From positions 124,001-188,000 of the forward strand of contig QPGO01000137.1 in assembly GCA_008632985.1 (NCBI GenBank): 64,000 nt of DNA. Direction: 5' to 3'. Origin of the DNA: Psammoneis japonica. Taxonomy: Eukaryota. Below, piece by piece: positions 17,258-64,000 of the stretch (position 1 is its first letter; each line of letters starts with the position of its first letter). The translations under genes and the position numbers were made by a program. Below the pieces are notes generated by a model that worked only from the letters and a program-made list of their open reading frames with translations, did not search any database and was not told where the DNA came from.

Positions 17258-17488
17258 GTGGTGTGTGAGATGGTGAGTGTGTGTGCAGTGTGACGAGTGG
17301 GACAAGCTTGTGTGCAGATTCTAGAGCAGAGAGCATGAATTCAATGTGACTTTTTTCTTTCTGCCATTTTCGAGTTTGTGGGGGATGCAAGCTTCATGAC
17401 TTGGCAAACAGCAAACAAACTTGTGTGACACAACCAGTCTAAATAAAAGACAGGCTTTCTGCAACAGCACAAACACCTGAAAATTTTG
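17258..17488. repeat. Decayed duplicate of the RPS18 upstream/promoter region (cf. 7775-7955)
   Basis: Shares tgtgagatggtgagtgtgtgtgc, gtgactttttt.ctttct and gcaacagca.aaacacct with 7780-7950. Confidence 0.75.
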
Positions 17489-17566
17489 ACATGGTCATTG
17501 TTTTAGAATCTGCTGCAAACCTCATTGAGCAGCATCAGCAATGTCGATGCAAAACCCAAAACCAAC

Positions 17567-18100
17567 ATGGCAGAACAAGAAGAGGAGTTTGAGACAGAAG
17601 GTGCACTCAAAGCTTGGTTGGAAAGCAAAGGGGTTGGGAGGTGCAAAGCAGCAGAAGCCATTGTTTTGTTCCACAAGGGTTTCGACAATCCAGATTGCTC
17701 AGTGGAATCAGCCCTGATGTCTTGCATGGAAATTGTCTTTCTGATGCCATTGCACAAACTTTGAGCAACAAGCTTGCCAAACAACAGAAGCAAGGTCAAT
17801 CTCCCACTGTGTGTGCATTGGGGAAAGGCTTGGTTGGTCTGGACAAATCACATGAGGAGCAATGCTGAATGTGCAACTCTTGAACCTCTAGAGCAAGATC
17901 ATGTGAGGACCCTTTTTGAAAGATTTGGCTTGATGGATGAAGATGAGAAGTTTTTTCAGTCAGCTTCACAAGTCCACCACCGGTGTTCTAAGGTTTGTTG
18001 CCCATGTGGTCAATTTCTTTGCAGATTGGCATCCCGGGGCAGGTAATGAAAAGGCAAAGAATGGGAGGGAAAGACATTGATCTGATGTGCCTTGGAGTTT
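17567..18100 (+). pseudogene. Decayed gene with a diatom SAM-like N-terminal module (MAEQEEEFETEGALKAWLESKGV...FDNP...LSNKL)
   Basis: Recognisable N-terminus of a multicopy diatom family (from recall, not searched), followed by frameshifts in TA-depleted sequence. Confidence 0.4.
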
Positions 18101-19388
18101 TGACAGTGTCTTTGTTGGGAAAGCAACCAAGAGATGAATCCTCTCCAAGGCAATGCTTGCAATCTGTGTGCATTCTTCATTGAGATGATTTGAGTCACTG
18201 CTCCGCATCTGCCTCTCAACCTTGATGCAAAAATCATTGGATCCAATGGGGGTTGGAAGCAAATTCAATCATGCTCAATGTGTGTGGTGTCTGTCTGCTG
18301 CACTTGAAGAAGCACACTGAAGTGGGAACATCTGAGCACCATTTTGTCACAATGCCCCCCAGCTGTTTGGACAATGTCTCGGCAGCCTGCCAGGATTTGC
18401 TCATCCCCTTTTGGGCTTCCTTGTGCAAAATAAATCCAGCCCAGGCAAGTGCACAAAAGACTCAGGAAGCATTCCAGAGTCAATGGCACAACAGCGTCCA
18501 TGCCCTTGTGTGAGTGAAGAGTCAAATCAAGGACAAAAAACATTGGTGGAGGTTCTTGAGTTTGTCAAGGATTTGAAAATTGCAGGCTCAACATTTGAGC
18601 CCAACACAGATCATGCACTCAAGAAGTTCTCCAAAATTGCTTTGGCTCCAAGTCCAGGCAACTTCATGCTGGCAGAAGGCAGTGCACAAGTCTTTCTTCT
18701 CCAACCAGCGTTGCTTTTTCTGTTGCCATGTGTGCTCTCTGCCATCAAAAGCCAGCATTGCTGTTTTGAAGATGCTGCCACCACTCAGCAGTGCCAAGAA
18801 AGCGCCCCCTTCAATGGCCGTGCCCTGCACCCAGTGCTTGCTTTGCTCACACAGATGTTTTTTTTGCAGTTTGAGAAAAAGAAAGGTGTCAGCTGCCATT
18901 GTCTTCATTGTTGATTGCACCTGTGCACTTGCAGCAGGTGCTTCAGTCATTGACAACTTGCACAGTGTCTGTCATTGAGGAGTTCCTCAGGGGGCACCTC
19001 TCCTCTGTCTCCTCTTGTGTGGTCACCAATTTTTTCCTGACAAAGTGGACACTCTCCACTGCTTTCAATGGCACTGAATGCACCAAGCACACAGGGGGAG
19101 ACAAGAGCTGCTGCAAGGCTTTAGAAGAGCTGTTTTGGATCAAGCTTGGCTGTCTCCTTGTCATCAAGCAAGGCATCATTGCAGCAATGCAGTGGAGCGA
19201 GCATTGCTGCTGTGTGGAGAGCTGAGAGAGCCTTCCAAACAACTTCGGCACCTTCTTTGTTGCCCACTCTCTAATCTCTTTGGGCTCTGAAAAGAGCTGG
19301 GAAGTTGGCACAGAGCAACAAGCAGCAGCGCAAGGCTCTTGTTGTTGGCTGTGATTGCGGAATTTCTTGCAACCACCACCAGCACTGG

Positions 19389-20575
19389 CATTGAGAACAA
19401 ACAAAATGTGCCAAAACTTGTGGCCCTGCATGAAGCTGTCTGGCCTGCAGCATTGAGCAAGAAGAATTTGTTGTGAATGGAAAAGACCTGGATGAAAAGA
19501 AAGCAAGCACAGACGACACAAGCAAGGGTGGATTTTCAATCCATCCATGATGATGTCATGATGAGATGATGACACATCCATCACACAAGTGATGGCAGTG
19601 TTGACATGACACAAATTTGCACAAAACATTGGCATGGAACATGAGCCACAAATTTCAGAAAAAGCCAATGCCCAACCCCAAATTGCCACACACGCCACTT
19701 GCCAGTGCTCCTTTAGAAGCCAGCGCTGCTTGTTGACATCAACGTCAAGTCAACTGGGGCTGCTTGCACCCTTTTGTCTGAGTTTTGTTTGATGAGCTGA
19801 ATTTTGGAGGTGAACTCAAGCTGTCAGGAGTGCAAAATCCCATGCATTTTTAGCTGGCTTGTCATCAACCTCGCTCTCACGCCACTCGCTCTTGTTGTGT
19901 TTCTTCAAAGTGGCAAGCTCATTTGCAAAACAACATGATGTGCTCAAGGGACTCACCTGGCACCTGATTTAAAGGAATGAGCAGAACTCAGCAAGGTCAA
20001 TTTGCATCTGATGAATTCTGGAGAAATGCATCCCCATGGATGTCCAGGATGATGTCATCTCAATCGCGCAGCGCCACATCATGCACACTCAGAAGCTGCA
20101 GTGTGTTGTCAACAACAAGCACGCAAAATTCTTTTAGCTGCTGACTGGCAGTTTTCAAGAATGGGATCACATCGGCTCTTTGCCATCATCATTTGTTGGC
20201 ATGCACTGCAGCTGACAAACAAAAACAAGTCGCGCCAGCCAAGTTTCTTTTTCGTGAACGCCAAACTTGTCAATTTTTGCAACCTGTGCAAAGAGCGGTT
20301 TCAGCGGGATGTTGTGCCCACATCTTGAACACATTCCTCATGCCAGCTTTTTTCACATGGTGTCCTTTTTTCGTTTCTCAAGAGCAAACACACAAACACA
20401 GAAAGGAGAAAGTGTTGTGCGATTATTTGTGTGCGGCGAGCTTGTACGTGGATTCTCGTATGAATTCTACGTGACTTTCTTACTTTCTACCGTTTTACTT
20501 GAAATAACTGTAATATTTGGTTTGAGTAAGGGAAAACAGACAGACTTCTTGCAACAGCATAAACACCTAAATTTT
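19389..20575 (-). pseudogene. RPS18: RPS18 pseudogene fragment: exon 2 start plus intron (19389-19583), ~740 bp of unrelated insert, then exon 1 and promoter (20322-20575)
   Basis: CCRPDSFMQGHKFWHILFVLNA versus [22 protein letters not shown]. Intron similarity (aaaagacc.ggatgaaaa, agacgac.ca). 20322-20575 matches 7655-7952 (acatggtgtccttttttcgtttctc, aaacagacagacttcttgcaacagcataaacacctaa). Confidence 0.8.
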
Positions 20576-25108: not shown

Positions 25109-25620
25109 TGTTTGCTTGGCAGCAAGTGTTGAGCCTCGTGGCTGACAATGTAATGATGTGGATTAGTCTCGACAATCTTTGGATGATCAGGCGTTCGTTC
25201 TTGCTAGCTTCTACAGCGAAAGGTGCAACTTTCAACCAATCGCCCTTGGCGATTTTGTGAGCAGCTTTTGTTTTATATGTATTTTTAAAATAGCTGAATA
25301 AAATATATTGTACAGATGCACTCCACTATCATAATCGATGTACAAATATTTAACGGTCACATATTTTGGTTGCGTGTTGAGTCCCGTGAGCTCGCGACGT
25401 GGGAATTGCAATCGTGAAGAAGAATCACCAATGCCTGCTCTAGACGCGTGTCCACCAAGAGCACCAACCCACCTGATCCTCGGAGCTTGGTGTCTCAAGG
25501 CTCAACAACCTTCTTCATGTCTCCTGCCAGGGTGCTTTCTTTGCGTCTGTCTCTCCCCAGTGGTCGTTTGTGCACAGCTCACAAAAGAGCAAATCTTTTC
25601 TTCACACATCACTTTTCCAG

Positions 25621-28600
25621 TGACAGGATTTGAACAAGATCCCAGTTTGTCACACACAATTGTGTGTGCTCTTAGTTCTGCGCGCATCGCGCGACGTAGT
25701 TTGCTTTCGAGCCACAGGCTCACGAGAACAATGACAGCAGCACCAACATCAAGACACCAGTCTTTCGGCTCCTGTGACGGTCTCTGCACGGAAACTCATC
25801 TGCTGTTTAGACAGCAGCAAGGAGTCATTGTTTTCTTCCACCCAGTCATCTTCATTTTCTGTCAGATTAACAGTCTTGCTCTTCATCATCCATTGAGCGT
25901 TCATCATCGTCATCGAGAAATTTTTGATGACACGCACCGCTTGTGGCAGAAGCACACATCTGCCTTCTTCACTGCTGGACACTGGATTAAATCTACACGT
26001 TTGGATTTGTCCAATGCCTCCCATCGTTGGATGTGTTTGTTCAACGGACATTTGTTTGGCCAGGAATTCCCAAATTCTCAGACATCCGAGATTCCGGATT
26101 CCTCACAGCGGATCCCACCAATCCATCCGCACACGTCCATGCACACACGACATGAACCCCTGACTCTGGCTCTGCTCCACGCATGCCAAGTCTACCGCCT
26201 TGCATCTGCACTGGATTGCTGGTCCTCTGCAGTCCCACAAGGTCTACTGGGACAACTGTGAGAGGAAGCAGTTTGTGATTGCAGCCTGCGTTGGGGCGAG
26301 GGTGCATTTCCCACGTTTGTTCATCCCTCCACAGCGCCAAATTTGGCCGGCCTGATCGGGTTGTCCAACTGACACAAAACAAGAACGGTTCAGAGGTCTT
26401 GTCCACCTCTGGCCAGCTTGTCAGCAGGGGTTTTTAACCCATTGCTCTGCTCTCAAGCAACCCAAAGCATCGCCAGCTGCGGGTTCGGACATGCCGGCAC
26501 AACTCTGCGGACTGGACAGGAAACTTGGCACTCAACTGCAAACGGGATGTCACAGCCCAGCGGTTTCTGACTCTTGAGACAGTTCAAGACATCAAGTCAA
26601 GATTCAAGTCAAGTTTCAAGTTGTTTCAAGCCCACACTCTGATTCCAGCCAGCTGTGACATCCACCCAGTTGCAACATGGTTCTCACCAGGCAACAACAA
26701 ATCGATGGCCTCGAGCACATTCTAGGCACTGTTCTGAATCAAGCCACAGACAGTCCAGTGTGCTCCGCCCTCAACATTGATGGAACCAATTTGCATCAGG
26801 ACCTTTTCACTTTTACTCTGATGCAATTGGATGCCCTTGTGTGCAACGACGGCACCAAGCAAATGCCCTTGCCACGTGGTTACAAAGCACAGACAGCTGC
26901 GCTGATTAGCCTGCACACGGCAAAAGCACGCGGCGGCGCGGATGTCAGCAATGACCCTCAGTTGTTCACACAAGAGGAGTTCACCAACTGTCATCTTAGT
27001 CCTGAGTGTGCAGCGTCCCTCTCGATGGGTGCAGCACCATCTGCTCCCACTCCTGGCTCGTTGCCACCCAAACCACGTGATCCCATGCATGACTTTAAAT
27101 GAGGCATTAAACGTGACCCACTTGCCTTCGCACTTCTCAAGTCCGACAAACAGTGGCACATGTGGCACACCTCCATCATCACACAGGCCCACTCCCAAGA
27201 CATTGCATGTGCACTCTCGATCTGATGCACAAGCCCTCCACAGCTGAGGACAAGGCCCTGTTTGATGAACAACAGAAGCACATGTTCGCAGTGTTTGAAC
27301 GGATCTTGCAGAATGACAAAGGCAAGGCACTTGTTCATCAACATGTCGGCTCCTCTGATGCTCAAGCGGTGTGTCATGACCTCTCCAAGTGCACCCTCAC
27401 TTCCACCCATGCATCCCTGGAGTCCTTGACCCTTCTCACACACCTCACCACTGCTCGCCTTGGTGATGGCACCTGGAAAGGATCCACTCATGCCTTCACA
27501 CTTCACTGGCAGGATTTGCTTCGCAAGTGTGAAGCTCTTGTCCCGGGTGCGGACCATTTCTCTGCTGGCCAGAAACATGTCATGCTTGAGAACGCCATTC
27601 ATCCTGTTGAAGAACTCCATTCAGTGAAGAATCAGGCCAATCAGTTCCGCACTCAGAATGGAAAGGGGCCCTCTTACAAAGAGCACTGTGGACTCCTGCT
27701 TTCTGCTGCAGCACAGCATGACAGCACGTTCGCTCCCAAGACAGCTCCTTGCACTCCGCGCCGTGCCATCTACAAACATGACCTGGTCCCTGATGACCCT
27801 GATGATGATGCATTCTTCAACATTGACAGTGATGTTGACGTCATCCAAGCTCATGCTGCACAAACTCGCAGCAATTCCCTCACCAAGGAACAACGGCGTC
27901 GCATTCCGCCGGACCATCAGCGCATTTGGGACACCTCACCCCAGCCCACCAAAGCGATCATTCTTGGCTCGCACACCGCCCACACCGGCAACTGCCATGA
28001 CTTGACGGCGGTCAACCTGCATGACCTCCGCATTGGCAGTGATGGCAATGTCAACTTGTCCGCCAACACTCACGATCTTGCGTCAGCCTCAACACAATCC
28101 GACACTGCAGCCGATGCAGCCGATGCCAACCCCATCCTGGCTCATCTCACCAGGCGCAAGCCTCTGCCACCTGGCAACTTGCAACATCTCCTGGCACCTG
28201 AATGGCCTCCTTCCACCTGTTCTGGCAAAAAACCGCCCGGATCTGCACCTTCCGTCCGCTCCGACGCAAAGCCCAATGACACTGTCATTGAGATCAACAG
28301 CCACAAATGCTGTCACGTCAACAACCACAATGTTGTCTGCTCTGCCTCGACCCACAAGTCAACTCGCAAAGGTGCTCTCGTGGATCATGGTGCAAACGGT
28401 GGCATCGCCGGTGATGATGTTTGTGTCATTGCCCGCACTGGTTGCCAGGTTGACGTCCAAGGTGTCAACGATCATCAACTGGTGGTGGACATTCCCATTG
28501 TCACTGCTGGTGGTGTCATCCACACGCAACGCAGCCCTGCCATTGCCATCCTTCACCAGTGTGCCCACACTGGAAAGGGGAAGACGATGCACTCTTGCAG

Positions 28601-31600
28601 CCAGCTCGAGTGGCACAAACATGATGCCATGAATGTGAACTCAATCCCAAGGATCCTGACTTTGAGTCCCTCTGCCCTTGCTTTGGCTTTTTCCCAAAGG
28701 ACACTGTCCGCCGCACTTTTGATTGCATGACACAGTGCACCCGCATGCCAGCCAGCACGCACCTGAAAAAGGCGCGCAAACTGCCCAACCCAGCTCTCAA
28801 TGTCCGCCGACGTGACAACCCGTTGCCACCGACATGGTCCACTCCGACACCCCTGCCATTGACTCTGGTTGCACCAGCGCCCAGCTCTTTGTCGGCATGG
28901 AATCTCTTGTCACTGACGTGCATGACACCAAAACTGACAAAGGACGCATTCCAGCCCTAGGTGGGAGCTCGCAGCACTGACGTGTGACACAAATAATTTT
29001 TGTCATCCGTCGCATGTTTCGCACGCTGTTTTGCGAAGCCCCAGACGTTTTGTGTGACGAATTTATAGAAACAATGATGTGCCAGTTACATTCTTCAATG
29101 TCTGAAGAATGTAACTGGCTGAGTAAAAAATGATGTACTTCAATCATGGGCGAGTTTGTGCGTTCGCAAAATTGCCTCATTTTCTGTTGGCGATCATTGA
29201 CATTTTAATTACCGCACAATTTTAGTGCGGAGCTCGCACGTAGAATTCTACGGGCCCAATGTCACACGGATTCCCACCTGCGTCTGGAACGCGTCAAAGA
29301 ATTCGTCAACACCCTTGAAGACAACATTCGTGATCGTGGTGCCCCGTCCAAGCTCATCAGCGACCGTGCTCAGGTTGAGATCAGCAACAAGGTTCTTGGC
29401 ATCCTTCATGCCCTCTTCATCTCTAGTTGGCAAAGCGAGCCTCACCAACAGCATCAGAATTTTGCTGAACGCCGCTGCCAAACTGTGAAGACCATGGCCA
29501 ACACTGTCATGGATCGCTTTGGGTCCCCGGCTCACACCTGGCTGCTCGCCCTGATGCACGTGTGCTTTGTGCTCAACCACATGGCGTCAGCCAAGCTCCA
29601 CTGGCACACCACCACCAAGGTGCTGTCCGGCTCCACTCCCAACATCGCCCGCTCCTCCGCTTTCAATGGTGGGAACCCAAGTGCCACCACCTGGATGATT
29701 CCAACTGGCCACCCGAATCCCGTGAATTGCATGGCCACTTGGTTGGCATCGCCGAACACGATGGTCACCAAATGACATTCAAGATTCTTTCTGATGACAC
29801 TCAGAAGATTCTCTGCCGTTCCAACATGCGCTCCGCCCATGATCCGTCTGCTCCAAACCTGCTTCTTGATCCTCCTGACAAGAAATCTGCTGAACCTGTC
29901 ATTAAATCCTGCCACGACTCTGAGGATTTGCCAGATTCACCAGATGGGGCGGCGATGAGGATGCCCAAAATGCCAGTCTTTGACCCCGAGGATGTCATGG
30001 GACGCACCTTCCTCATGAAGCCACAAGAGGATGGACAATGCCACAGAGCCTGCATTGTCAAAGCCGTTGAGGACCATGACTGGAAAATTGGAGACAATCC
30101 TGAACTGGTCAAGTTCATTTGCTCCGTCAACAATGACGAATGCAAGGAAGTCCCAGCCTGCAACAACATCATGCACCACATTGAGCAAGAAGATGAGGAC
30201 ACCACCCTCTGGAAGTTCTGATGCATCACATCGCACGAAGGGCCATTGCGACCCCATCATCCCTCTTTGAAAGGCTCAAGCTACAATGTCATGCTTGAAT
30301 GGGAGAATGGAGAGATCACGTCTGAACCCCTTGCCATCATTGCCAAGGATGACCCCCGTCACCTGTGCCATCCACGCGCGTGAGCACGGCCTTCTAGAAA
30401 CCGAAGGATGGAGACATTTTTGCAAGACAGCCCTTTGTCAGAAGAAGCTGTTCCGCATGGCCAACCAAGCCAAGTTGTGCTCCTTTTGCACTGCGCCATG
30501 ACACAAGTGCGGGCATGAAGTGCCATGGGACTGCAAGCATGCCATGGCCCTTGATGAGCACAATGGCAACCGCAAGTGGGGAGACGCAACGGACCTCGAG
30601 ATGACTCAGCTTGATGAGTGCAAGGTCTTCCACGACTGCGGACACCACAAGGATTCCAGTGCTCCATCAGGACACAAGAAGATCCGGGTGCATCTTGTCT
30701 GCGACGTCAAACATGACGGACGGCACAAAGCAAGGCTTGTTGGCGATGGACACCTCACAGACGTGCCCATCGACAGTGTCCATTCCGGAGTGGTGTCTCT
30801 CCATGGCCTGCAAATGATGATCTTCCTCCTGGCTGAGCTCAACGAACTAGAGACCTGGGCCACTGACACTGGGAATGCCTGCCTTGAAGCTACGACCAAG
30901 GAGAAACTGTGCATCGCAGCAGGCCCCGAGTTCGGCGACCTGGAAGGACACATCCTTGTCATCCACAAGGCCTTGTGCGGACTCACTTTGCTGATTGCTT
31001 GCATGCCGAAGGCTTCTTCCCATGCAAAGCCGAACCTGACATCTGGCTGCGTGGGAATGGTGACCACTGCAAATGCGTGGCAGTGCATGTGGACGACCTG
31101 GCCTTCGCCATGAAGGACCCCCAGGCTTTTGCAGACACCCTCATGGAGAAACACAAGTTCAAACTCAAGGGCACTGGACCATTGGAGTTCCATCTTGGCT
31201 GCGACTTCACCCGTGACCCAGACGGTGCCCTGTGTCTTGCCCCCTGCAAGCACATTGAGCGCATGGTTGACAACTGTGCGTGCCTCTTTGGAGAGAAGCC
31301 CCGCACTGATGTGCTTTTACCCCTTGACAAGGGTGACCACCCTGAGCTCAACACCTCCGAATTGCTCAAACCGGAGGGCATCCACCAACTCCAATCCTTG
31401 ATTGGATCCCTGCAATGGGCCGTGTCTCTGGGTCACATTGACATTGCTGCGGCTGTCATGTCCCTGTCTGGCTTCCGTGCAGCACCCCGTCAAGGCCACC
31501 TGGACTGTGCCAAATGCATCTGCGGATTCCTCTCCAAGATGCGTCATGGCACCCTCCAAGTGCGCGCCGAGGAGCCCGACTGTTTGGACCTCCCTGAGCC

Positions 31601-32465
31601 CGTGCATGACTGGGCTCAATCTGTGCATGGGGAGGTAGAAGAGCTGCTCCCACAAGATGCACCCAAGCCACTTGGCAAGTTTGTCACCACCACACACCAT
31701 GTTGATGCAAACTTGTTCCATTGCATGCTCACTGGACACTCTGTCACTGGCATCCTCCATTTCCTCAACAAGTTTCCAGCTGATTGGTTCTCTGACAAAC
31801 AAGCAACAGTCGAGACTGCTGCACATGGATCCGAGTTTGTTGCCGCAAGGACGTGTGTTGAGCAGATCATTGATCTGCGCATCACTTTGCGTCACCTTGG
31901 CATCCCCATTCGTGAAACATGTTGCATGTTCGGGGACAACAAGTCGGTTGTGGACAGTGCCACCATCCTGCACTCCAAGTTGCACAAGCGACATGCCGCC
32001 CTCTCATTCCATCATGTGCTTGAGGCAATTGCCTCCAGTTTCCTCAAGTTTCATTTCATTGAAGGCTCCCACAACCCAGCTGACATCCTCAGCAAGCATT
32101 GGGGTTGCTCACAAGTCTGGAACCTCCTTTGTCCTCCAATGTTTTGGAACTTCGATCCTGAGGCTTTCAACCAATCTGACCTTGAATCCATCACTGTTGA
32201 CCCCTCAAGCAAACTGGGGAGTGACAGGATTTGAACAAGATTTCAGTTTGTCACACACAATTGTGTGCGCTCTTAGTTCCGCGTGCATTGCACGGCATGG
32301 TTTGCTTTCGAGCCACAGGCTCACAAGAACAATGACAGCAGCGCCGACATCACGACACCAGTCTTTCGGCTCCTGTGAAGGTCTCTGCATGGAGACTCAT
32401 CTGCTGTTTAGACAGCAGCAAGGAGTTGTTGTTTTCTTCCAACCAGTCATCTTCATTTTCTGTCA
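25621..32465 (+). mobile_element. Ty1/Copia (CoDi-like) LTR retrotransposon, structurally complete but mutationally dead; LTRs 25621-25864 and 32222-32465
   Basis: 244-bp LTRs with TGACA...TGTCA termini, 5-bp TSD TCCAG (25616-20 / 32466-70) and PPT aaactggggag. Gag from 26677, protease ALVDHGANGG, integrase (FVNTLEDNIRDRGAP), RT (KARLVG, AVHVDDL) and RNase H (HGSEF, GDNKSV, NPADILSK), in Copia order. Confidence 0.95.
28943..29295. mobile_element. 353-bp MITE nested in the Copia integrase
   Basis: Imperfect 24-bp TIRs (gacgcattccagccctaggtggga / tcccacctgcgtctggaacgcgtc) and 4-bp TSD AAAG. Removing it restores ...KTDK-EFVNTLEDN. Confidence 0.88.
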
Positions 32466-34031
32466 TCCAGCTTGGTCAAGACAGAAATGAGCAACGGATC
32501 AACCACACAAAAACAAACAAGGGTGAGACTCGCTCACCTCTTTCTTCCTTTGGTCATTTTGGGGAGATTGCCAGCAGTCAAGTGGTGTGCATTGGGTGTG
32601 TTTTCATGCCCCCCAGGTGAGAAGCTTCTGGACAAATTGCAAGGTTTTCTGTGTGTTTTTGCGTGTCACATGCACCCAGTGCTAAATCTGTGCAAGAAAA
32701 TTGAGCTCCAAAGCACAGGTGTGCTTTTTGTGCCACCAACCACAAATCACCCATGATGCAGAGAAAATGGTGCCATGCCACAACCACAAACTTGGTGGCT
32801 CTTGCACCAGTGCCCACAATGACAAAGAAGGCAAGAATGTCAACAGAGCACAGATCAACAAGACCACATGCTCAATGCAATGATGTGGTTGAAATTTTTT
32901 TGATGTTTGTTGTGTCTTGTGCAGCCTTTTTTCTTGCAACTTTTTTGACATCTGTGTTTGGGCAAGTTGTCATGACATGAAAAGGGAGGTCAGAGCGGCA
33001 CATTGGCAAGATTCTGTGCTTTCTTTTTGTTGATGCCTGTGCCAGACTTTGCATTTGGAGAGGATCTCAAGGATTGAGCTGCCACACTGAACAATTGTGG
33101 AGATCTGCAGGTGCAGCAGACAACTCACATCAACACCCATGAGTGCTGTGCTCTTGATTCTCAAATTTGCACACAGCAAATTGGCTCAGCACAGACAATG
33201 GAGTGCTGATGACATTTTGGAACTTCTGGAATGTTCCAAATTGTTGTGTGAGTCAGATGCTGCGTCAACTCTGAGAAGAAGGTGACAAAAGAGTCGCCAA
33301 CTCATGTGTGTGTGAGAGAGTTTTTCTGAGCTGTTTGATGATCAGCCCTCAAATGGAAATGTCATCATCCTCAGTTGTTCCTTTCTCCAGCAAATGATGG
33401 AGATTGGTGCCCTCATCACATTCCTCTTGGTTGACGCTCCCAGTGTCACCACAGTCAAGTGCAAGATGGGGGGGGGGGCAGCTGGTGCACTCCTCATCAA
33501 CGTTGGAGTGGCCAATGGCCACTGTGAAAGAACCTGACAATTGGGGCATCTGCCATGGATTCTTGATCTGAGTCAGAGCACCCTTTTTTCCGCCACTCTC
33601 TGTTGGCTCTGACGTGCACAAACACAATGAGAGAGCTTTGCTCACTCTGCGGTGTGGTTGTGAGAAACTTCCACTGTTGCACTCACCCCACTTGTTTTTA
33701 AATTTTGACGCTGTTGCAAAAATGATGAATTCAAAACCTTGGCGAGTTGCAGGTTTTTGTTGCACAAAAAGACCAGAGTGCCAAATGGCAAACGGAGGGG
33801 GGTCTACTCTAGCTAGAGAGCAAGGGAGCAGAGGGGGGAAACGAGGCCGTGAAACGTCCTGGCCCTACAATGACTGGGACACATGCCTCTCGATGACCAA
33901 CGTATTATACGGTACCTGTTGTACCGAACACCATCTTTCCGTTGTCGTGAAAATTGTACCACACAGTATGTGCCACAAACGCACACCTACCGTACCTCGC
34001 TCCCTGCCTAATTTTGCGGGATGCATGAACC

Positions 34032-35489: not shown

Positions 35490-36020
35490 AAAAAGTTCCA
35501 GCATCCACCATCCAGCACCAAGTGCCTGCAGTCTGGCGCCCACCATCCAGCACCCAGCACACACCATTCGTCAGCTGCCATCTAGCATCAACCATCTTGG
35601 GTTTTGCCACTTGAAAGGAGAGTCACAGTGGCAGTCTGTCTACAAAATGGTTTCTGCACATGTTTTGCACTTTTGCCCATCACCATCACCTCCAGCCCGA
35701 TCCAATTGGAGCTGGGCTGGTCGGGATTGGGCTGGAGGAGGTGGTGGGGGCAGATGACAGTGCAAACCATGCATGGAAACTGTCATGCAGACAGACTGCC
35801 ACTGCGGTTCTTTTTGCAAGTGGTGATGCCCAGTGTGCCATCCACCACCCACCATCCAGCATCTGGTGTCTGCAGCCCACTGCCCACCATCCACCACCCC
35901 GTGGTCCAGCATCCACCACCACCCACCCTCCAGTGCTCAACATCCATCACCCAACACCCATCACCTGCCATCAACCATCTGCCATTCAGCACCTGCCATT
36001 CAGCACCACTCAGCATCCAG
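35490..36020. repeat. Low-complexity imperfect tandem repeats (catccac/ccagcac units) in decayed sequence
   Basis: Repeated ccatccacca/ccagcatcca blocks at 35500-35590 and 35840-36020. Confidence 0.55.
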
Positions 36021-36995
36021 GCTGATCAGGTCTGGCCCAGCGTGGCTTTGTCAGAGACAAAAACAAACCTCCAAAAAAAATGTGTGGACAAATCCAATGT
36101 TGTCTGCCTCTCTTCTGACAATGCTCACAGAGCAAAACAAGAAATTGCTTTGTCCATCATGCTCTGTTTTCTGTTTGACAGTTTTGAAGGGGAGAGGACA
36201 CTGTGGACAACACCTCCGCACCCCAGCTGTGCCCACACAGTCAAAATTGTTGTCTCATTTTTGCTTTGACAGCAGGAGCAAAAAGATTGCTTTGGTGGTC
36301 ATTTTTCCCAGTTGCTGATTCTCAAAAATTTGAAATCAACAACCAAAGACAACACAGTGTGCAGAGATGGCTGCGCGCAATGCAATGAACCTGTGGCGCG
36401 ATGGCAGGAGATGGGGGCCTGTTCCAGCCCCAGGTGATCCGCAACCCATCAAGCAAGATTTTCCATGCAGGTCTCAGCACCAGACAATTTTCCCAGCAGA
36501 GCTTGCATTTTTGGGCTTTTGGTGAACATCAAACATCAAACCCTTTGAACGATGTGACACACATTTGTGACAAGAGCACATGTCTCCAACAACTGGGGCG
36601 TGCATTTCGTCACAGGAACAACAGTGTCAGCTGGCATCCAACATTGTTCTTGTGATGTGTTGATCAATGCTTGCTTCTGCACGCATGTGTGGTTCACACA
36701 AAAAAACACCCCATGCACAACATCAGAGCCACAACACAGCACACCACTGTTGCTGCTCTCCAGCCCCCTCTTTGCCCTTGAGGTTGCAAGGAACCATCTG
36801 TTCCTTTCATTTGAAAGTCATGCCATTGTCACCACAGCACAATTGCAGCTCCGTGCAGTTGCTTTTGTTGTGGACAATGTCATCTTTTCACATTTTCTTG
36901 TGTTTGCAATTTGGCGCTGGTGACAGGGAACAGACGGGTGACAAGAAATGGGCAGCCATGCTGCTGAACTGTGGCACTTGTCCTTTTCTGACTGG

Positions 36996-37446
36996 TGCAA
37001 CACACAGCTGCCAATGAGAGTTGATGCATCACGGTGACGTGTTGCAGCCTTTACATGTCACAAAGGGCGTGACAAAAACAACCTTTTGTCTGCATGCATG
37101 CTGCATTGTGAATTCACAGCGGAGTGGTTCATCGCAACCATTGGGCAGGAGGCCAGGGGTTCGAAACCCTGAGTGGGAGTTGTCTGCAGCAACGTTGATC
37201 ACTGTCGAACGTGCAAAACTCTGTGCAGTTCTGTGTGTTCCTTCACACGTGCCCACACTGTTCCGCCAAAACCGTGCAGTGTCAGCACACGTTCGTCAGT
37301 GAAGAGCCGCATGGACGCGTGATGCATGGGGAGGAGTGCAACATGCAGCCACCAATGAGAGTCAGTGCATCACGGCAATGTGTCACAGCCTTTAAATGTC
37401 ACAAAGGGCGTGACAAAAACAACCTTTTGTCTGCATGCATGCTGCA
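36996..37446 (+). mobile_element. TRIM (miniature LTR element) copy A; 110-bp LTRs 36996-37105 and 37337-37446
   Basis: TG...CA direct repeats, PPT ggggaggag before the 3' LTR, 4-bp TSD CTGG. Confidence 0.88.
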
Positions 37447-38774
37447 CTGGACTTGTTCAAGCCATTTTGTTTGGCTTGAACAAGAAGTTGGAGGCATGTC
37501 TTCATTGTCAGAAGTTGCTGTTGCCTCATTGCATGGGAGTGTTGGGTTTTGAGAATGTTGTGGATGCCACACCTCAATGTCCAGACTTGACAGAGGTCTG
37601 CAAGCACTGAGAGTGGGACAATCTCATGAAAAACAATGGAGACAACACTGTTGCACTGTGTGCAAAGGAGCTGGTTGCTCCAACAAGTGCTGCAGCTGTT
37701 CTGGCATTGCCTCATTCCAGCCAAGAGCATGTCAGCCATGCCACTGAGATGAGCAACGATCATGACTCTTGGGAGGAACTGCTTGCTGAAAGCAAAAGCT
37801 GCATTGCCAAGAGTCATCATGTCAGCGCTGCCAAGTGACAGCCAGGTCAACATTGATGGCTCAGAAAAGTGTGATCCTCCAATGTCAGAACCAGAGATCC
37901 AAAAAAGACTGCACGACCATGTTTTGGCAAGATCATGTTTGACAGTTGCTGGACAACTGAGTCCAGGTTGAGAGTGAAGAACAAACTTAAAATGTTGGCA
38001 TTGAAGGAATTACACGTCAAGCTGCATTGCAACACAAAGTGCGCCATTTCATCTGCTGAATGGCTTTGGCATGAAACACACACAACCGCCAGTCTGATGG
38101 ATCAGAAGTTGTTGCTCAAGAGGAAGCAGGTGGACAAAACACAGTGTTGCACACCAGGTGTCAAATGTCACAAGCAGAAGAAGTCCAACGGTGGGTGCAA
38201 CAACAGCAATTGTGTTTTCCATGACAAGCATTGTGAGAGGCACCAGGATCTTGTCTGGCATTCCCCAGCATCTCCAGGAGTGCACCATCCTCTGGCCCTT
38301 GGAACATGGTTTAGATGTGCTCCCTTGCAACCCCATTTGCCAGCCTTGACAGTTGTCATGGGTGGGCCAAACTTGCTCCACACCATGTCTTCCTGTGCTT
38401 TGCAGGACAGCTCATCCCATTGCAGCAGATGGAAACCCTCATCAAATTCACAAGACAGTGCAGCACAGCCCTTTGTGACAACTTCATCTGCCATTTCCTC
38501 AGTCAAAATGTCCAACTCACAGATTTGTGAACCAGCTGCACCTCGTCAACATCACTCTCAGTTGTTTGAGCTGCCTGACAAACTGTCCAATCATTCAGTC
38601 CCTCAAAGATGGGCCACAGTTTGCAAGCTCAGTTGCCAGCTGCATGCCAAGGCTGCTCGGCAGGGCTGACATTGTTCTTTGCCCAAGGTCATCTTGAGCT
38701 GATCCAGGAGGCAGTCTTCACAAGCACAAGGAGTGCATTGAATGGCAACCCAACCAACAGCAGGAAAAAGAGGC

Positions 38775-39400
38775 TCAAATTGAAAATGGCGCGTGGCACC
38801 AATGCCACAATGCACAGTGCCACTGATGCAGTTGCGCCAATCCCAACAACTTGACTCTGGCTGCTGAAGAGCCAAGACCGTCATTTGGATCTTGCAGATG
38901 ACACACCCTTTCTTTCAACTTTAAAAGGGATTCCCTCACAGCATGTTTCCTGTTGTCATCTGCACCTTTGGCATTCTCTTCCCTGAGAAGAATTCCAGAA
39001 CATTCTTTTGAGTGCCTGTTCTCAACTGCAACATTGTTGTCATTCACAACCAAAGCACCAGCTCCAATTTTTTGCAGACTGCATTTCTCAATGCAGCACA
39101 AGTGATTTGACACAGGCTCCAACTCCATCAACCTCTCCTTTGCCATGTCCGGGTGCTCCAACCACCATCAAATCAAAAAAATTGCAACGTGCACAAAATT
39201 TGTGACAAATTCCAAGTCCCCGCACAATTGCCGTGCAGCAAGTCAAGAAACAACCCTTGTCACCCTCAAAGATCATCTTTGCAATGCAGGCAACATCCTT
39301 TGAAAAAAGATGTGATGCACAAGAAAGGAGAAATCATCATTTTCAAAGGAAACTGCCTTCTTGTGACTGCAACTCATGCCAATGCATCACAAAATTTCAA
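38775..39400 (-). mobile_element. Decayed DDE/DDD transposase remnant (HGKG..DG.G motif, Sola2-like)
   Basis: ORF 39088..39276 contains APGHGKGEVDGVGA. The superfamily assignment is from motif recall only. Confidence 0.45.
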
Positions 39401-40007
39401 CAAAAATGACCTTTTTGGACAACTGCACTGCCTTTCCTCACAAACAAAACATCACATGGCTCTTTGCAATGACAATGACCCGGTTGGTGTGTTGTTTCAT
39501 GTTGCTTGCAGACCTGCAGTTGTCAAGCAACAAAACAGCAGCATTTGCTCATTTGAAGCAAAAAATGAAGTGCTCTGAGACCTCCCATGTGCTCTCATTG
39601 TGAAAGAATGTGAGCTGTTTGTCTTCACAAATCAATTTGTGACTCACAAATTTTGCATCTCAGCGGCCAATGGCACACGGTCAAAGACAACTTTCTTGCA
39701 TTTGTGGGCAAACACAGACAACAAGTGCAGCGCCAAAGTGCATCAATGCTGTTTGGCGCAACCATCTGTGTGATCCCAAATCACAAGCCACACCTGACAC
39801 AGTCCATGGTTCTCCAAGGGGGGGCGGCTGTTGCTCAATTTGGGAGGGGGCAGGTTGTTGTCTTGGAAAGGACAACCCTTCACGATGACACTTTTTGTTT
39901 TTGCTGTTGTCAGTTTGTGACTTGTGTTGATGGCCAACTCCAGTTTGCCTCCTCTTCTTTGTCATGATGCACTGCAATTTGAGCAAAAAATGTGCACTGA
40001 GAGGGCT

Positions 40008-40454
40008 TGCAATGCACAGCCACTGATGAGAGTTAATGCATCACGGCGACGTGTTGCAGCCTTTAAATGTCACAAAGGGCATGACAAAAATGACCTTTTG
40101 TCTGCATGCATGCTGCGTTGTGAATTCACAGCGGAGTGGTTCATCGCAACCATCAGGCAGGAGGCCAGGGGTTCGAAACCCTGAGTGGGAGTTGTCTGCA
40201 GCAACGTTGATCACTGTCGAACACGCAAAACTCTGTGCAGTTCTGTGTGTTCCTTCATGCGTGCCCACACTGTTCCGCCAAAACCGTGCAGTGTCAGTGC
40301 ACGTTGGCAAAGAGCCGCATGGACGCGTGACACATGGGGAGGAGTGCAACACACAGCCACCAACAAGAGTCAATGCATCACGGCGACGTGTTGCAGCCTT
40401 TAAATGTCACAAAGGGCATGACAAAAACAACCTTTTGTCTGTGTGCATGCTGCA
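40008..40454 (+). mobile_element. TRIM copy B
   Basis: Same LTR-internal-PPT-LTR structure as copy A; 4-bp TSD GGCT (40004-07 / 40455-58). Confidence 0.88.
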
Positions 40455-58797: not shown

Positions 58798-61700
58798 TGT
58801 CAAACCAAGGTCACCACATGCCTTGTGCTCCTCACAGGAGGCTAACCTCCTGTCGTTTCGGATTGTGGAGTTTCAGAGTCTGCAGGTGGGCGAGCAGCAT
58901 TGGTTTTGCTGCTGTTCCAATCAATCATCTTTGCATTGCTGCAGCGATCCAAGCAAGCACTGTTGGGTTGGGATGTGGCTCCATGTCCATGCTGTGACCA
59001 GGCCAATCAGAGGTGCACAGCAACATGAAACCACTGCCTTTCCAAGAAAGTGAGCTTGGTGCCACAAAGGTCAGAAGTGCAAGCTCAAGCTGAGGTTGAT
59101 GTCAAAACAAAGAAGTGAGTAGACCAAAGAGAGGGAGAGCCTGAGTGTCAGTGAGCGCTGGCGAGCCCTCTCAAATGGCTGCGTCAATCTAACATCCAAA
59201 ATTAACACTGCATGTCAGAAGCGTGCGAGTGAGTTGCTGCACTCTTCCCTTCCATGATCCGAAAGAACTAGAGGATCATGCAAAGGGTTAAAACCAGGGA
59301 CCAAAACCCAAAGAAATTGCAACAGCAGGAGGAAACCCAGGTGTTGGGAAGAAAATGCAGCATGCATGCAGACAAAAGGTTGTTTTTGTCATGCCCTTTG
59401 TGACATTTAAAGGCTGCAACACGCCGCCGTGATGCATTGACTCTTGTCAGTGGCTGCGTGTTGCACTCCTCCCCATGCATCACGCGTCCACACGGCTCTT
59501 TGCCAAAGTGTGCTGACACTGCACGGTTTTGGTGGAACAGTGTGGGTGCGTGCGAAGGAACATGCAGAACTGCACAGAGTTTTGCGTGTTCGACAGTGAT
59601 CAACGTTGCTGCAGACAACTCCCACTCAGGGTTTCGAACCCCTGGCCTCCTGCCTGATGGTTGCGATGAACCACTCCGCTGTGAATTCATGGCGCAGCAT
59701 GCACGCAGACAAAAGGTTGTTTTTGTCACGCCCTTTGTGACATTTAAAGGCTGTGACACGTCGCTGTGATGTGTTGACTCTTGTTGGCAGCTGTGTGTTG
59801 CAAAAACCCCCTGATCAACCACGAAAGGGAATCAGGCGCCGAATGTTGAGGCGCTCAACCACATGAGGAGCTCGATGAAGCGAGAGCGTGCCATTCACAT
59901 GCACTTGAACAATGGGACAAGGGCCATGAGCACGAGGCTCGAGTCTGGACGGGTCAACCGACTTGATTGGAACTTGATCACCCACTTGACAATCGCAGGA
60001 TCTTCTCTTGGCATTGGCTCTTCGCAAATTGTCATTGATCAGCGTCTGGCGATGGCCTTGAATCGTCAACAAGTCTGCCAGCACAGGGACACCTGGGATC
60101 ATGTCACGTCCAAACACCATGGCACCTGGTGAAGTCTGTAAAGAACGGGAAACAGCACAGCGAGTTGCATGCATTGCAGTTGCCAAAGCATGATCCACGA
60201 GGCCAGCTGCACCCTGAAGGTTTTGAGGTGGATTGGAAGCAATGAGCGTGCGCAGTGCATTGCCGACAGTCTGGTGCATTCGTTCGCAAACAGCATTGGC
60301 TTGAGGGTTGTATGAAGCAGTCGGCACATCATCAATTCTGGCTTGTTGCAACAGCATCTGAAAATCGCACCCGGTGAACTCGCCGCCGTTGTCGTGGATG
60401 CATCGATTCGGTCTGGGACAGCGTGCAAGCCAGCAGTTTTCGAATTGGTTGGCAACATGTCGGGCAGTTTTATTTTCAATTCTCACCAGTTCAACAAGAT
60501 TGGAGACAGGATCAACACAGGTCAATGCCCGAAACTCAATCTCTCAATTCGGCACTTTGATTTTCCACGGGCCAATGAGGTCAACCGCCACTTCTGACCA
60601 GAGAGCCAATGGAGCTTCTCGCTCGGGTGACTCTCCACAGCCAGGACCTAAAGATTTGTTACATTGGCAATCAGCACAAGAGCACTCATCACACATGCGA
60701 CGCAACCCAGGATGACAACAATGAGCCTGGATCATTTCATGCATGCGCTGGCTTCCGGCATGGCCAAGGACGAGATGACACCACCGCAATGTGTCGGGCA
60801 TGAGCGCAGTCGGCAAACAGATTTTCCACTGTCCTGGAGGATCATTTGGTTGCATGCGATGACACACAAGCAGTCGATCATTCACACATTCTACGAGGAA
60901 ACGATCAGGGTGAGCAATGCGCATCTGGTTCAACTGTTGGTCCTCGAACTGGTGCTCTTGAATGCATTGTAACGTCATCGGATTCTGCATCTCTTGCATC
61001 GTAGGGTGGTTCAAGAAAGAATCGAACAGTTCCGGCTCATCCACAAAGAAAGAGAAGAAGTGTGAGTGGCCTTCATTTTCAATGTTGCAACAACACTTGA
61101 ATCGGCACGCGCCGAGCTCCAAGTCCTCATCGCGGAAATCCTTGAATTCGGATGGTTCCTCACTCGGCACCAACTTCGAATCGAGCAGAGCAAAATCAAC
61201 AACAGTTCCTTTGCCCGGAGCCAAGCTCTTCCCTTTAGAGGGAGGATCCACACGAGGTGAGTGAGAAAAACAATCAGCCAAGACATTCAATCGGCCTTCA
61301 ATGTGATGAAATTGAGGGGCAAAGTCTTCCAGAAAGAGTCGCCAACGAAGCACACGTTGTGAATTCAAGGTGCGAAAGGTGAGGTTCTTGTGGTCAGTGA
61401 ATGCATGCAAGTCGCCACCAAGGAGCATCAATCGGCATTCTCGGAAGCACATGACAATGGCCAACAGCTCTTTTTCGATCGTCGAACAGTTTTGTTGCGC
61501 CGCATTGAGCTTTCGAGACCAGCACGCAATGGGCTTTCCATCCTGTTCAATCACTGTGCCCATCTGGCAATCACTTGCATCGGTGTAGACATGGAAGGGT
61601 TTGTCATGATTCGGATGTGCCATTGATGTTTCAGCCGCTGGGACTGCTTTCATCTCATTGAACGCCACCTGACTTTCCGCTGTCCATGTCCACGTGCCTT

Positions 61701-64000
61701 TACCTGTGAGATCTGTTGAGGGTTTCAACAGGTGAGAACGCCAAGGCCACACATTGCGACAGTGCGTTGCAGCGCCAAGGAACGAACGAAGCTGCTTGAT
61801 GTTTTCCGGAGGTTGCATTCGCAGGACAGCTTCCACCTTTTTCTTCCACGGATGAATTCCAGTCGGAGTTAGCCAATGCCCAAGGAAATCCGTTTCCTGC
61901 ACACACCATTCGCATTTCAAAGGATTTACTTTGAACCCAGCTTCTTCCAAGCATTGTAAGAGTTCATCAAGACGGTCAAGGTGAATGTCAAAGTTGTCAT
62001 CAAATTGAGCAAGATCATCAATGTGCGCGTCAACGTCCAAGTTGTGCACAGTTTTCTCAATCAAACATTGCGCAACATCTGGAGCTGGCTTCAGACCCAT
62101 TGCCAAATGGCAGCATCGGCACTTTCCAAAGGGTGTCACGATTGTCGTCAAATCCTTGGAGTCATCATCCAATTCGAATGCATGGCACATCATTGAGAGG
62201 TCCAATTTGGTCAAAAACTTGCACCCGGCTCTCTTCTGAAGCACATCTTGAATGATCGGCAAAGGACAAACCTTGCGCTTGAGGGCTTTGTTGAGTTCCC
62301 AAAAATTGCTGAGCCACCGCACTCGACCATCCTTCTTTGGCCGAATGAAAGTGCCAGCAGCCCATTCCGAAGTTCCGGCTTCTTCAAGAACGCCAAGAGC
62401 CACCAAGTGATCCAGTTCTCGTTTGAAAGTTTCAACATCATTGTGCGGCACTGCATGCACTCGAGAATGACAAGGAACAGCGTTGGGATCAATGTCAAGG
62501 TGAACTTTTTCGCCAGCATGCTTGCCGAGAGTGCCATCAAAAAGAGCAGTGTGTTTTTCCAATGCGAGGCGTAATTTTTCTTGTTGTTCGGCAGTGAGAT
62601 GCTTCTGAGCCGACGCTGCTTCAGAAGGGGACGTCTCCTCACACTTTGCATCGAGGATGTGGCTGTCCCATGCATCATCATCGTCAGCTGGCTCATCAGT
62701 CAAGTCGTCAAGCCACTGCTGGATGCCAATCCGATGGTTTCTTGGTTTCATTGCAATGCTTGAATCGAGCCACTTGACAGTTCCGTGTTCAAAATCTAAC
62801 GTGATGCCTGCTCTCGCCAAGAAGTCCTGTCCAAGGATCACATTGCACTGGCAAGGTGAGTCAAACACATGCGCATGCATGCCATCAACACGTTTGGTCT
62901 TGTCAAATTCAGGGAGCACCACATCCCGCAGTCAAACGTAATGAGCAGATTTGAATTCTCCCGCTGACGTCCGAAACTTCGCAACAATTGGTCCTGTGTC
63001 CTCCAATGCTGGTGCTGCTCCAACTGGCAACACCCGAGCATGAATCATTGAATGGGTTCCACCAGAGCTGAGTGACACCCGCATCACGTGCTTGCTTTCC
63101 TTATCTTGAATGAATCGCGCCGCGAACAAGGTTGCAGGGACCACGTTCAAAGGTTTGGTTGGTTTTGTTTTTGGGGTTGGCACAGCGCACTCAAGTCCCA
63201 CATCGTCTTCGTCATTCACAGTGTGATTTTCGAAATCGTCATCATCAAACAAATCAGCAGCATGCACATGACAATCATCAATGCAGTCAGCACAATCATC
63301 AAACACACAGGAATCAGGAGTGACACACTCGGACGACAGCTCTTCAAGCTCATTGGGTCAGCATCAACCGCGTCCCGAGAAGCGACCACCAGGTCGAAAA
63401 CTTCCCACTCCACCTCGATGCTCACGAGGCCCTCCCACAGAATCAAGATGATGGCTTTCAGCAGACCAATCATCAGGAGGAGCCATTCTGGCCAGATTGC
63501 CGTAACCGCCACCATCTGCATTGGTTTGGGTGTCGTTTTGATGTTGCATGCAGGAGCCACCATCTTCATGATGCTCGCCGCCATTGCCACCAGAGTTGCA
63601 GTTTCCTTGACCGCCACAATTTCCTTGGCCACCACCACGACCTTGACAGCCACGGCCTTGCCAACCATGACCTTGATTTCCACCATGACCATGACCTCCA
63701 CCGCGACCGCCACCTCGACCACCACGGCCACCACATCCACGACCGCCACGATCAGTTCTTGGACAGCAGTTGTTGGAGTCAGGATTCATGACGCAATCTT
63801 TCCACTTGTGATTGTGAGTGTGCAACGGACATTGGGTTTCTGGGTCAATGCGATTGCCTTTCTTCTTGTTCGAGCCGCCTTTAGACTGTCCATCTTTGCG
63901 CTTTTTCGACGTCTTCTTGTTCCCATCTGCAAACGATTTCTCCGTGCTCATGTGCGTGACTGTTTCCGCCAGTGTGTCATTTCCAATCGTGCGTCCTGCT
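58798..64000 (-). mobile_element. Ty3/Gypsy LTR retrotransposon (5' part outside the window); 3' LTR ~58798-59241
   Basis: Gag with CPLH..H.W..C and RGG tract (63364-63951), then protease, RT (LDLSM, TPFG, HIDD), RNase H (VYTDAS, EKELLA, TDHKNL) and integrase (HAG..R, DLIGP, DNGGEF, NPQAN..ER). PPT ggaagggaagag lies next to the LTR at 59241. The distal LTR end is approximate. Confidence 0.93.
59356..59802 (-). mobile_element. TRIM copy C, nested in the Gypsy 3' UTR
   Basis: Reverse complement of copies A and B; 4-bp TSD AAAA. Confidence 0.88.

Follow-up and report, generated by a model that had tools for sequence, protein, structure and literature searches.

Can a retrotransposon lose almost every residue of a single amino acid while keeping most of its other conserved positions, and what kind of process would leave such a record? 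The question is raised by a dead Ty1/copia element, a long terminal repeat (LTR) retrotransposon at positions 25621–32465 of the forward strand in a 64,000-nt stretch of DNA from Psammoneis japonica (Eukaryota; GenBank assembly GCA_008632985.1, contig QPGO01000137.1, positions 124,001 to 188,000), which was analysed at its full length and is called the window below. An earlier note on this DNA, made from the letters alone, had described the element as structurally intact and young, with tyrosine erased by a directed and fast process. Comparison with relatives and with the rest of the window makes it highly probable that the element records a process specific for the dinucleotide TpA (TA) which turns A:T into G:C on transposon DNA, to which ordinary CpG decay was added. 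TA became CA or TG, the two strands were used equally, and other contexts were spared.

The most conspicuous part of the element is the frame 30909..32234 (forward strand; 441 codons and a stop), which encodes the reverse transcriptase (RT)-RNaseH portion and has observed/expected (o/e) ratios of 0.03 for TA and 0.44 for CG. As the earlier note had stated, its translation contains no tyrosine; it has 32 histidines and 20 cysteines, and at the tyrosine frequency of the relatives (3.8%) the probability of finding none in 441 codons is 3e-8. The altered motifs which had been listed are genuine. HVDD, HGSEF, HHVDANL and KHWGC stand in this frame, and P0001, an intact relative of 1859 aa, has tyrosine at each of them; KALCGL is equally real but was assigned to the wrong frame, as its place, 30967, falls within the adjoining frame 30502–31113, 5′ of a frameshift. 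The RT catalytic codon at 31086 is CAT, where 40/40 relatives have tyrosine.

Conserved tyrosine columns were defined as those with tyrosine in at least 80% of 40 aligned full-length relatives and covered by the element (n = 41). At these columns the element has one tyrosine, 18 cysteines (13 TGC and five TGT), 17 histidines (ten CAC and seven CAT), three phenylalanines and two leucines, the single retained tyrosine being a TAC at 30282. Tabulating the codons against intact relatives, as had been proposed, shows that 35 of the 40 replacements, and hence 35 of the 41 columns, are exactly TAY to CAY or TAY to TGY (Y, pyrimidine). The earlier note had named two observations that would speak against it, namely histidine or cysteine occurring naturally at these positions in active relatives, and equal saturation at other sites; in the relatives histidine accounts for at most 10% and cysteine for 0% of the sequences at these columns, and other sites are unsaturated. 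Other conserved residues of the element are kept at 589 of 708 positions (83%), as opposed to one of the 41 tyrosines (Fisher 5e-28), which upholds the reading of a directed process rather than neutral decay.

The replacements also reveal on which strand the changes fell. Because the 17 histidines and 18 cysteines are nearly equal in number and do not cluster in the element (19 runs compared with 18.5 expected), both strands must have been struck alike. One-step A:T>G:C replacements outside TA are rare, affecting 18 of the 708 conserved residues, and the change is therefore not a general drift towards GC. Across the element TA has an o/e of 0.10–0.11, with CA raised to 1.57, TG raised to 1.74 and CG at 0.58. 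Furthermore, 20 of 54 conserved arginines have become histidine, cysteine, glutamine or stop, which is the pattern of CpG decay; this is a second, ordinary process superposed on TA erasure in the element.

Relatives of the element retain their tyrosines. Among longer proteins, 1247 relatives were detected, the best being single metagenomic polyproteins of 1850–1930 residues with 58–67% identity to the RT-RNaseH frame. In a metagenome scan that yielded 80 loci encoding relatives, all 80 keep tyrosine at 65–100% of the conserved columns, with at most two histidines and one cysteine per locus, and the TA o/e of the coding DNA is 0.29–1.00 (median 0.79) in the first 40 loci, compared with 0.10–0.11 in the element. 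Loci with a CG o/e of only 0.2–0.3 still keep tyrosine. Four of the loci (L002, L005, L013 and L079) combine a CG o/e of 0.20–0.24 and a TA o/e of 0.49–0.52 with intact tyrosines; in these other hosts CpG has decayed but TA has not been erased. A search for near-length proteins returned 119 relatives, among which there was no close sister copy (top identity 65%) and the median tyrosine retention was 0.94. Conserved tyrosines have changed to histidine or cysteine in four of the 119, all from public metagenome or genome assemblies: P0359 (1 Tyr, 5 His and 5 Cys at 15 columns), P0313 (4, 5 and 6 at 19 columns), P0334 (12, 4 and 7 at 25 columns) and P0295 (10, 5 and 0 at 17 columns). These four keep 87–92% of their other conserved residues and, judging from their protein sequences, may represent the same process at earlier stages in other assemblies.

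Which TA survived depends on the neighbouring base. Survivors in the TA-poor blocks of the window were set against counts in the rest of the window, a background which is only a stand-in for ancestral composition. The classes beginning with A are almost empty (ATAT 0/62, ATAC 1/167, ATAG 2/110, ATAA 9/172), followed by those beginning with G (GTAC 0/112, GTAA 20/149) and then by those beginning with C or T (CTAC 15/205, CTAG 8/64, CTAA 30/105, TTAA 26/45). A per-strand model in which the strands are independent and survival is set by the base 5′ of T gives fitted per-strand survivals of 0.056 for A, 0.147 for G, 0.364 for C and 0.755 for T; this multiplicative model describes the data well (chi2 4.65, 6 degrees of freedom, p 0.59), as opposed to uniform survival (chi2 199). 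TA erasure thus depends, per strand, on the base 5′ of T in the order A>G>C>T. Taking the DNA of 39 TA-normal relatives as the reference for the element yields the same order, and no survivor then falls into any ATAN class or into GTAC. Tables of neighbouring bases against the histidine or cysteine outcome gave no rule.

The signature extends beyond the element. Six blocks of the window are poor in TA (8001–14400, 16601–20400, 26001–33800, 35601–41400, 50801–55200 and 58801–64000; 33.4 kb in total), with 3.4 TA per kb as opposed to 38.5 per kb in the rest, and in them CA and TG are raised and CG is lowered. The last block contains a Ty3/gypsy element with the same signature on the reverse strand (58801..64000; Pfam RVT_1, RT_RNaseH, Integrase_H2C2 and rve), whose pol frame 60547–62931 (795 codons) has one tyrosine, 41 histidines and 38 cysteines at a TA o/e of 0.09. 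With a CG o/e of 0.76, this element has lost far more of its TA than of its CpG. When Pfam was run on 69 frames of the depleted blocks other than that of the copia element, a family was named in the Gypsy block only, the remaining four being without one. Host-like frames between the blocks have 2.1–3.3% tyrosine and a TA o/e of 0.41–0.66. TA erasure is therefore a process of the genome and not a peculiarity of the copia element: long transposon-derived blocks were struck, and genes as well as a short insert of 353 bp, described below, were spared. At 42250–46103 (forward strand) lie three tandem lactonase-like (7-bladed propeller) paralogues, the DNA repeats of which are 64–77% identical; with a TA o/e of 0.59–0.66, these diverged gene copies were not struck. 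A TA-rich 91-nt direct repeat (7799–7889 and 20416–20506, 80% identical) sits just beyond the outer edges of the blocks 8001–14400 and 16601–20400. The non-depleted part of the window also holds a GC-rich tandem array of 66-nt units at 3404–3733, in which four overlapping 132-nt copies are 71–85% identical.

The edges of the copia element are informative with respect to the reach of the process. On the left, TA remains frequent as far as 25362, after which a single TA precedes the 5′ LTR. This left flank (25363..25620, 258 bp, its last five bases being the target duplication TCCAG) has one TA compared with 15.0 expected (o/e 0.07), CA and TG raised to 1.53 and 1.39, and near-normal CpG (CG 11 compared with 16.5, 0.67); at background density about ten TA would be expected, and the Poisson probability of one or fewer is 5e-4. 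The right flank (32466..33800, the duplication at 32466–32470 standing first) is an older block poor in both TA (2 compared with 94.8 expected, 0.02) and CG (14 compared with 72.4, 0.19). As CpG content differs sharply between the two sides of the insertion site, the left flank seems to have lain outside the older block, and the erasure there suggests that the process would spill some 250 bp into adjoining DNA, from either the copia element or the older right block.

Within the element, at 28943..29295, is nested an insert of 353 bp resembling a miniature inverted-repeat transposable element (MITE), which breaks the integrase region at the position of P0001 residue 884 and has AAAG on both sides. 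It has 24-nt terminal inverted repeats (83% complementary) and an internal 17-nt perfect hairpin (29081–29119). The insert is unmutated, with 13 TA (o/e 0.51), several of them in the most vulnerable contexts, and a CG o/e of 1.23. In X1, one public DNA run kept as contigs, the summed depth of the insert is 85,000–102,000 as opposed to about 57–78 in the flanks, a depth sum not being a copy number. Either this abundant short element escapes erasure, or it arrived after the process had ended there.

The speed of the process can be judged from a direct repeat on the forward strand with copies at 36996..37446 and 40008..40454, which serves as a comparison pair. Over 451 columns the dinucleotide classes are CG/CG 15, CG versus TG or CA 8, CA/TG 13, TA/TA 2 and TA/TG 1. 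Outside pyrimidine-purine (YpR) dinucleotides only 1 of 188 sites differs (0.5%), which is below the copia LTRs (Fisher 0.033). A CpG loss of about 21% per copy leads to an expectation of about 0.5 CA/TG discordances; since 13 are seen, about 12 would stem from some 25 TA which were erased independently in both copies. By this arithmetic, the rate of TA loss exceeds that of CpG decay about tenfold and that of other changes by a factor of hundreds. The discordances of this pair, together with the TA-poor left flank and the one TA/TG difference between the LTRs, show that the process acts on resident DNA. The two copies lie 3012 bp apart and 4.5 kb to the right of the element; each unit starts with TGCAA, ends with TGCTGCA and contains an internal sub-repeat of about 95–145 nt and a GGTTCGAAACC-like stretch, and ARAGORN found no tRNA gene in these repeats.

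The element itself is identified as Ty1/copia by its LTR pair, its TCCAG duplication and its copia-type RT. The repeat search delimits a 5′ LTR at 25621..25864 (three TA, TA o/e 0.19) and a 3′ LTR at 32222..32465, both of 244 nt with TG..CA ends and 92% identical; read from the sequence, the 5-bp duplication TCCAG occupies 25616–25620 and 32466–32470. A direct count gives 20 differences in 244 sites, namely 17 transitions and three transversions, of which 15 fall in CG, TG, CA or TA dinucleotides, in agreement with the estimate made by eye. The "intact architecture" claimed for the element is accordingly correct for its LTRs and target duplication; the coding part, on the other hand, carries several frameshifts, three in-frame stops (all TGA, at 27100, 30219 and 30499), a deletion and the MITE-like insert, and matches residues 1–1850 of P0001 in eight tblastn pieces in three frames. 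The LTRs and the polyprotein parts of the element are all on the forward strand. The N-terminal, gag-like or unassigned part (26677..28610; tblastn to P0001 residues 1–650) has no Pfam family, and a 537-codon frame at 27117–28730 has two tyrosines, 43 histidines and 17 cysteines. About 400 bp are deleted at 28610..28640, where P0001 residues 650–784 are absent between the tblastn pieces; the lost stretch measures 129–200 residues in 40/40 relatives, with 38 of 135 columns conserved. The integrase region follows (28765..30356; tblastn to P0001 826–1238, and the fold of relatives), split by the MITE-like insert, and then the RVT_2-type RT (30655..31280) in two frames, with a frameshift near 30984 and HVDD at 31086. 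Stop trinucleotides in the element number 6 TAA, 12 TAG and 150 TGA, and because TAA and TAG are nearly gone, many long frames are open on both of its strands. Dead elements with their TA erased will consequently retain long open frames and pass as intact in annotation based on open reading frames.

RVT_2 is the sole Pfam family matched in the element, with 23 and 28 bits on its two frames, so that each half scores below the cut-off of 31.6 bits; intact relatives score 97–104 bits (P0001 104 bits, at residues 1338–1554). Residues 840–1240 of the relatives adopt a retroviral-type integrase fold in a model built from a 28-locus alignment (predicted local distance difference test score, pLDDT, 73.3). 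Foldseek matched this modelled region to the prototype foamy virus (PFV) intasome (E 5.5e-10), and its superposition on the mouse mammary tumour virus (MMTV) core gave a TM score of 0.79 with a root mean square deviation of 2.8 over 159 columns; searches by sequence in Pfam, NCBIfam and PDB gave no match for the integrase, which is recognised by fold only. Since this region is N-terminal to RVT_2 in the relatives, the order is that of copia, the gypsy order being the reverse. Among named proteins, the nearest belong to two diatoms, Cylindrotheca closterium (61% identity, labelled "Ty1/copia-type") and C. fusiformis (59–60%). The CoDi groups of diatom copia elements, according to the text of Maumus et al. 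(2009, PMC2806351), are defined by an RT tree with the reference CoDi1–7 of Phaeodactylum or Thalassiosira.

When did this copy lose its TA? The LTR pair falls into the classes CG/CG 4, CG versus TG or CA 10, CA/TG 1, TA/TA 2 and TA/TG 1, and outside YpR dinucleotides 5 of 118 sites differ (4.2%). From these classes the CpG loss is about 56% per LTR, which implies about three CA/TG discordances; as one is seen, no origin from TA is needed for it, and the LTRs would appear to have held only about three TA when they were identical, at insertion. With about half of the CpGs lost and 4.2% divergence outside YpR, "structurally young" does not describe the element. Nor do its LTRs support "fast", as their identity does not time the erasure, whereas the neighbouring repeat pair does support it; the dating argument that the earlier note drew from the LTRs of the element is not upheld. 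In general, LTR identity will misdate elements whose TA were erased. The terminal repeats at 12 loci of relatives, several of them cut by contig ends and one doubtful, have a TA o/e of 0.59–1.04, equivalent to 9–16 TA per 244 nt. Sister copies were approached through X1, which over the element has 167 variant places (A>G 44, T>C 33, C>T 40, G>A 39, transversions 11). The 79 C>T or G>A places compare with 220–380 erased TA sites, a count obtained as 250–406 expected minus 28 survivors. Among 40 of the 167 rows, 24 have CG in the majority of sister copies and TG or CA in this copy (private CpG decay), four have TA in that majority (including the tyrosine codons at 29557 and 31698, with 29332 ambiguous) and 12 are other changes. 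Most erased sites thus seem to be common to sister copies and, as the outcome at a site does not follow from its neighbouring bases, sharing of erased sites means inheritance. It is somewhat more probable than the contrary that the copy descends from a template which had been hypermutated beforehand, most of the erasure predating insertion. Such a template would have been mobilised in trans, and after insertion CpG decay would have been dominant, with the few remaining TA lost at a CpG-like rate.

The earlier note had instead envisaged a copy which inserted intact and then lost almost all of its TA in place in a fast burst, and this we consider a minority prospect. The left flank, which lost its TA (one remaining compared with about ten at background density) and kept its CpG, points to heavy in-situ erasure at this locus; bursts of this kind are documented by the neighbouring repeat pair, and the X1 data are biased towards like copies. 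An intact insertion would, however, have started from LTRs with the 9–16 TA that the relatives' terminal repeats predict, and as the histidine or cysteine outcome is neither fixed by neighbours nor subject to a regional strand bias, independent erasure in the two LTRs should have left discordances. About 5.6 are predicted, and the pair has one CA/TG (a Poisson estimate of about 0.02) besides one TA/TG, though CpG decay alone predicts about three CA/TG; moreover, the 79 C>T or G>A variant places fall short of the 220–380 sites that a burst after insertion would have had to erase. Editing of RNA or of single-stranded cDNA by deamination during retrotransposition, after the manner of APOBEC3 on retroviruses and with a copy born dead and with identical LTRs, would account both for TA-poor yet concordant LTRs and for the untouched DNA-type MITE. 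It is nevertheless improbable. Editing confined to a single strand, whether of the RNA or of the minus-strand cDNA, would yield only one type of replacement and not 17 histidines and 18 cysteines, flanking DNA beyond the element is likewise erased, the neighbouring repeats diverged after their split, and each new copy would be expected to bear its own pattern, while few variant places are listed in X1.

A technical origin is more remote still. If a modified base in heterochromatic TA were misread, the strands would disagree and the consensus would call CA or TG at random, which would mimic the even split between histidine and cysteine, and the technology of the assembly, like that of X1, is not on record. 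The contigs of X1 (a 31-mer set, longest record 315 kb, depth about 57–65), however, agree without a single difference with both flank–LTR junctions and with the TA-poor flanks, at a single-copy depth of 57–78; they would seem to require accurate reads, in which base calling is independent of modification, so that misread modified bases are unlikely. The element furthermore shows real decay in its frameshifts, TGA stops, deletion and CpG-type arginine losses, and we regard misreading as very improbable indeed. Least credible of all, to the point of being negligible, are the ordinary causes, namely a TA-poor composition of the family, selection against TA, and GC-biased drift or gene conversion. 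The genome background is indeed TA-poor (o/e 0.4–0.7) and a few relatives have a TA o/e of 0.29–0.5. Tyrosine is nonetheless kept in 80/80 relatives, the replacements are histidine or cysteine at random with phenylalanine in only 3 of 41, A:T>G:C outside TA remains at 18 of 708, and the frame of the element is broken.

As for the chemistry of the TA-specific process, the enzyme would act on DNA in 5′-TA-3′ on either strand. Deamination of adenine to inosine in 5′-TA-3′, read as G at replication, is by analogy the favoured candidate, though somewhat short of an even chance; tRNA adenosine deaminases naturally act on A preceded by U. The main alternative chemistry, a thymine-directed modification mispairing with G, we rate as rather unlikely. 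Targeting would proceed by repeat length or homology, or by heterochromatin.

Several points weigh against the account favoured here, that is, a TA-specific process which had struck most of this sequence before insertion. The timing is soft, since the LTR counts are low (one CA/TG discordance seen where about 5.6 are predicted), and the X1 contigs are short and were placed at a likeness of at least 90%, which favours like copies, with 40 of the 167 rows considered. The copying of a tyrosine-less element requires a helper, of which none was seen, and the TA-poor left flank fits strong in-place erasure after insertion, unless it is derived from the older right block. X1 may be the source data of the assembly and hence not independent. 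The histidine or cysteine outcome is described worse by a model in which A is edited according to the base at −2 (log-likelihood −34.4) than by the null (−30.5), and the mirror model (−30.7) is no better than the null (n = 44 sites). Finally, the two neighbouring repeats may have arisen by independent insertion and not by duplication, and site-uneven CpG decay could supply some of their CA/TG discordances.

On a broader scale, we tentatively propose, as a possibility with the balance still against it, that diatom-type genomes possess a defence resembling repeat-induced point mutation (RIP) with the opposite chemistry. An editor would convert A:T to G:C at 5′-NTA-3′ (N: A>G>C>T) on both strands of long repeats, saturating within about 0.5% of ordinary divergence, spilling over by about 250 bp and sparing elements of about 350 bp, and tyrosine-less copia lineages would still be copied in trans. 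If true, such a defence kills genes but not propagation. RIP leaks into flanking DNA and spares short repeats. A RIP-like trigger by duplication or length would fit the heavily struck repeat pair and the spared 353-bp MITE, but the MITE is maybe younger and flanks of single-copy depth were struck as well. So far as the texts on Neurospora and other ascomycetes describe RIP (PMC7296669; PMC7882544; PMC2621366), the two share dense transitions in repeats, action on both strands and the destruction of coding capacity. They differ in direction: RIP changes C to T, mostly at CpA, and creates TpA, whereas the element loses TpA and its tyrosines become histidine or cysteine. A RIP-type change of C:G to T:A at CpA is thereby ruled out, as TpA was lost and not gained.

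The action of APOBEC3 on retroviruses and endogenous retroviruses, in the form given in the text of PMC12548423, is likewise of a deaminase type, dependent on context and known for leaving dead proviral copies. Unlike the element, in which A:T to G:C changes are strand-symmetric and include the flanks, it converts C to U on minus-strand cDNA before integration and leaves an asymmetric G>A pattern. Diatom transposable elements are also subject to DNMT5a-dependent methylation, as the text of PMC9998398 reports, and decay of methylated CpG accounts for the CG o/e of 0.58 in the element, for the changes at 20 of the 54 conserved arginines and for 10 of the 20 differences between the LTRs. A change of TAY to CAY or TGY is beyond its reach, and CpG-poor relatives keep their tyrosines. 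Literature searches at the level of main texts found no account of TpA erasure in diatoms; the main text of a 2025 preprint on diatom transposable elements (10.1101/2025.10.24.684338) does not contain the terms RIP, dinucleotide, TpA or deaminase.

The phenomenon is genuine but uncommon, and it has one close precedent. In the chlorarachniophyte Bigelowiella natans, the main text of a 2026 preprint reports hypermutation at TpA in integrated DNA of giant viruses and virophages, an enrichment of reverse-transcriptase and transposase domains in clusters which are poor in TpA and rich in CpA and TpG, new mutations at about 6e-7 per site per generation in some mutation-accumulation lines, and an only mildly depleted viral region in which TpA makes up 3.3% of dinucleotides; an ADAT-like DNA adenine deaminase is proposed there, not shown (Mettrop et al., bioRxiv 10.64898/2026.01.13.699255). 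Measured against that text, both systems change TpA only, to TpG or CpA depending on the strand and in the direction A:T to G:C, and both are restricted to foreign or mobile DNA, as reflected here by six depleted blocks set against normal genes. They differ in that new mutations were measured in B. natans, whereas the window shows the end state only, near saturation at a TA o/e of 0.02–0.1, and in that the signature of the window lies in LTR retrotransposons of another host and is accompanied by CpG decay. In the main text of the preprint, the words flanking, context and trinucleotide are absent, and by that comparison the A>G>C>T flank rule may be new. Defence against mobile DNA by targeted hypermutation is established for cytosine, in fungal RIP and APOBEC, and its TpA-directed A:T to G:C counterpart rests on this one preprint. 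To that precedent the window adds the flank rule, strand symmetry, spill-over into flanks, a short escaping element and a ranking of rates in which TA far exceeds CpG and CpG far exceeds other sites. The process may be visible in other public assemblies as well, as the four relatives with histidine or cysteine in place of tyrosine indicate, and the copia element provides a codon-level read-out of the TpA signature in a second, unrelated algal lineage, where it is saturated and lies on retrotransposons.

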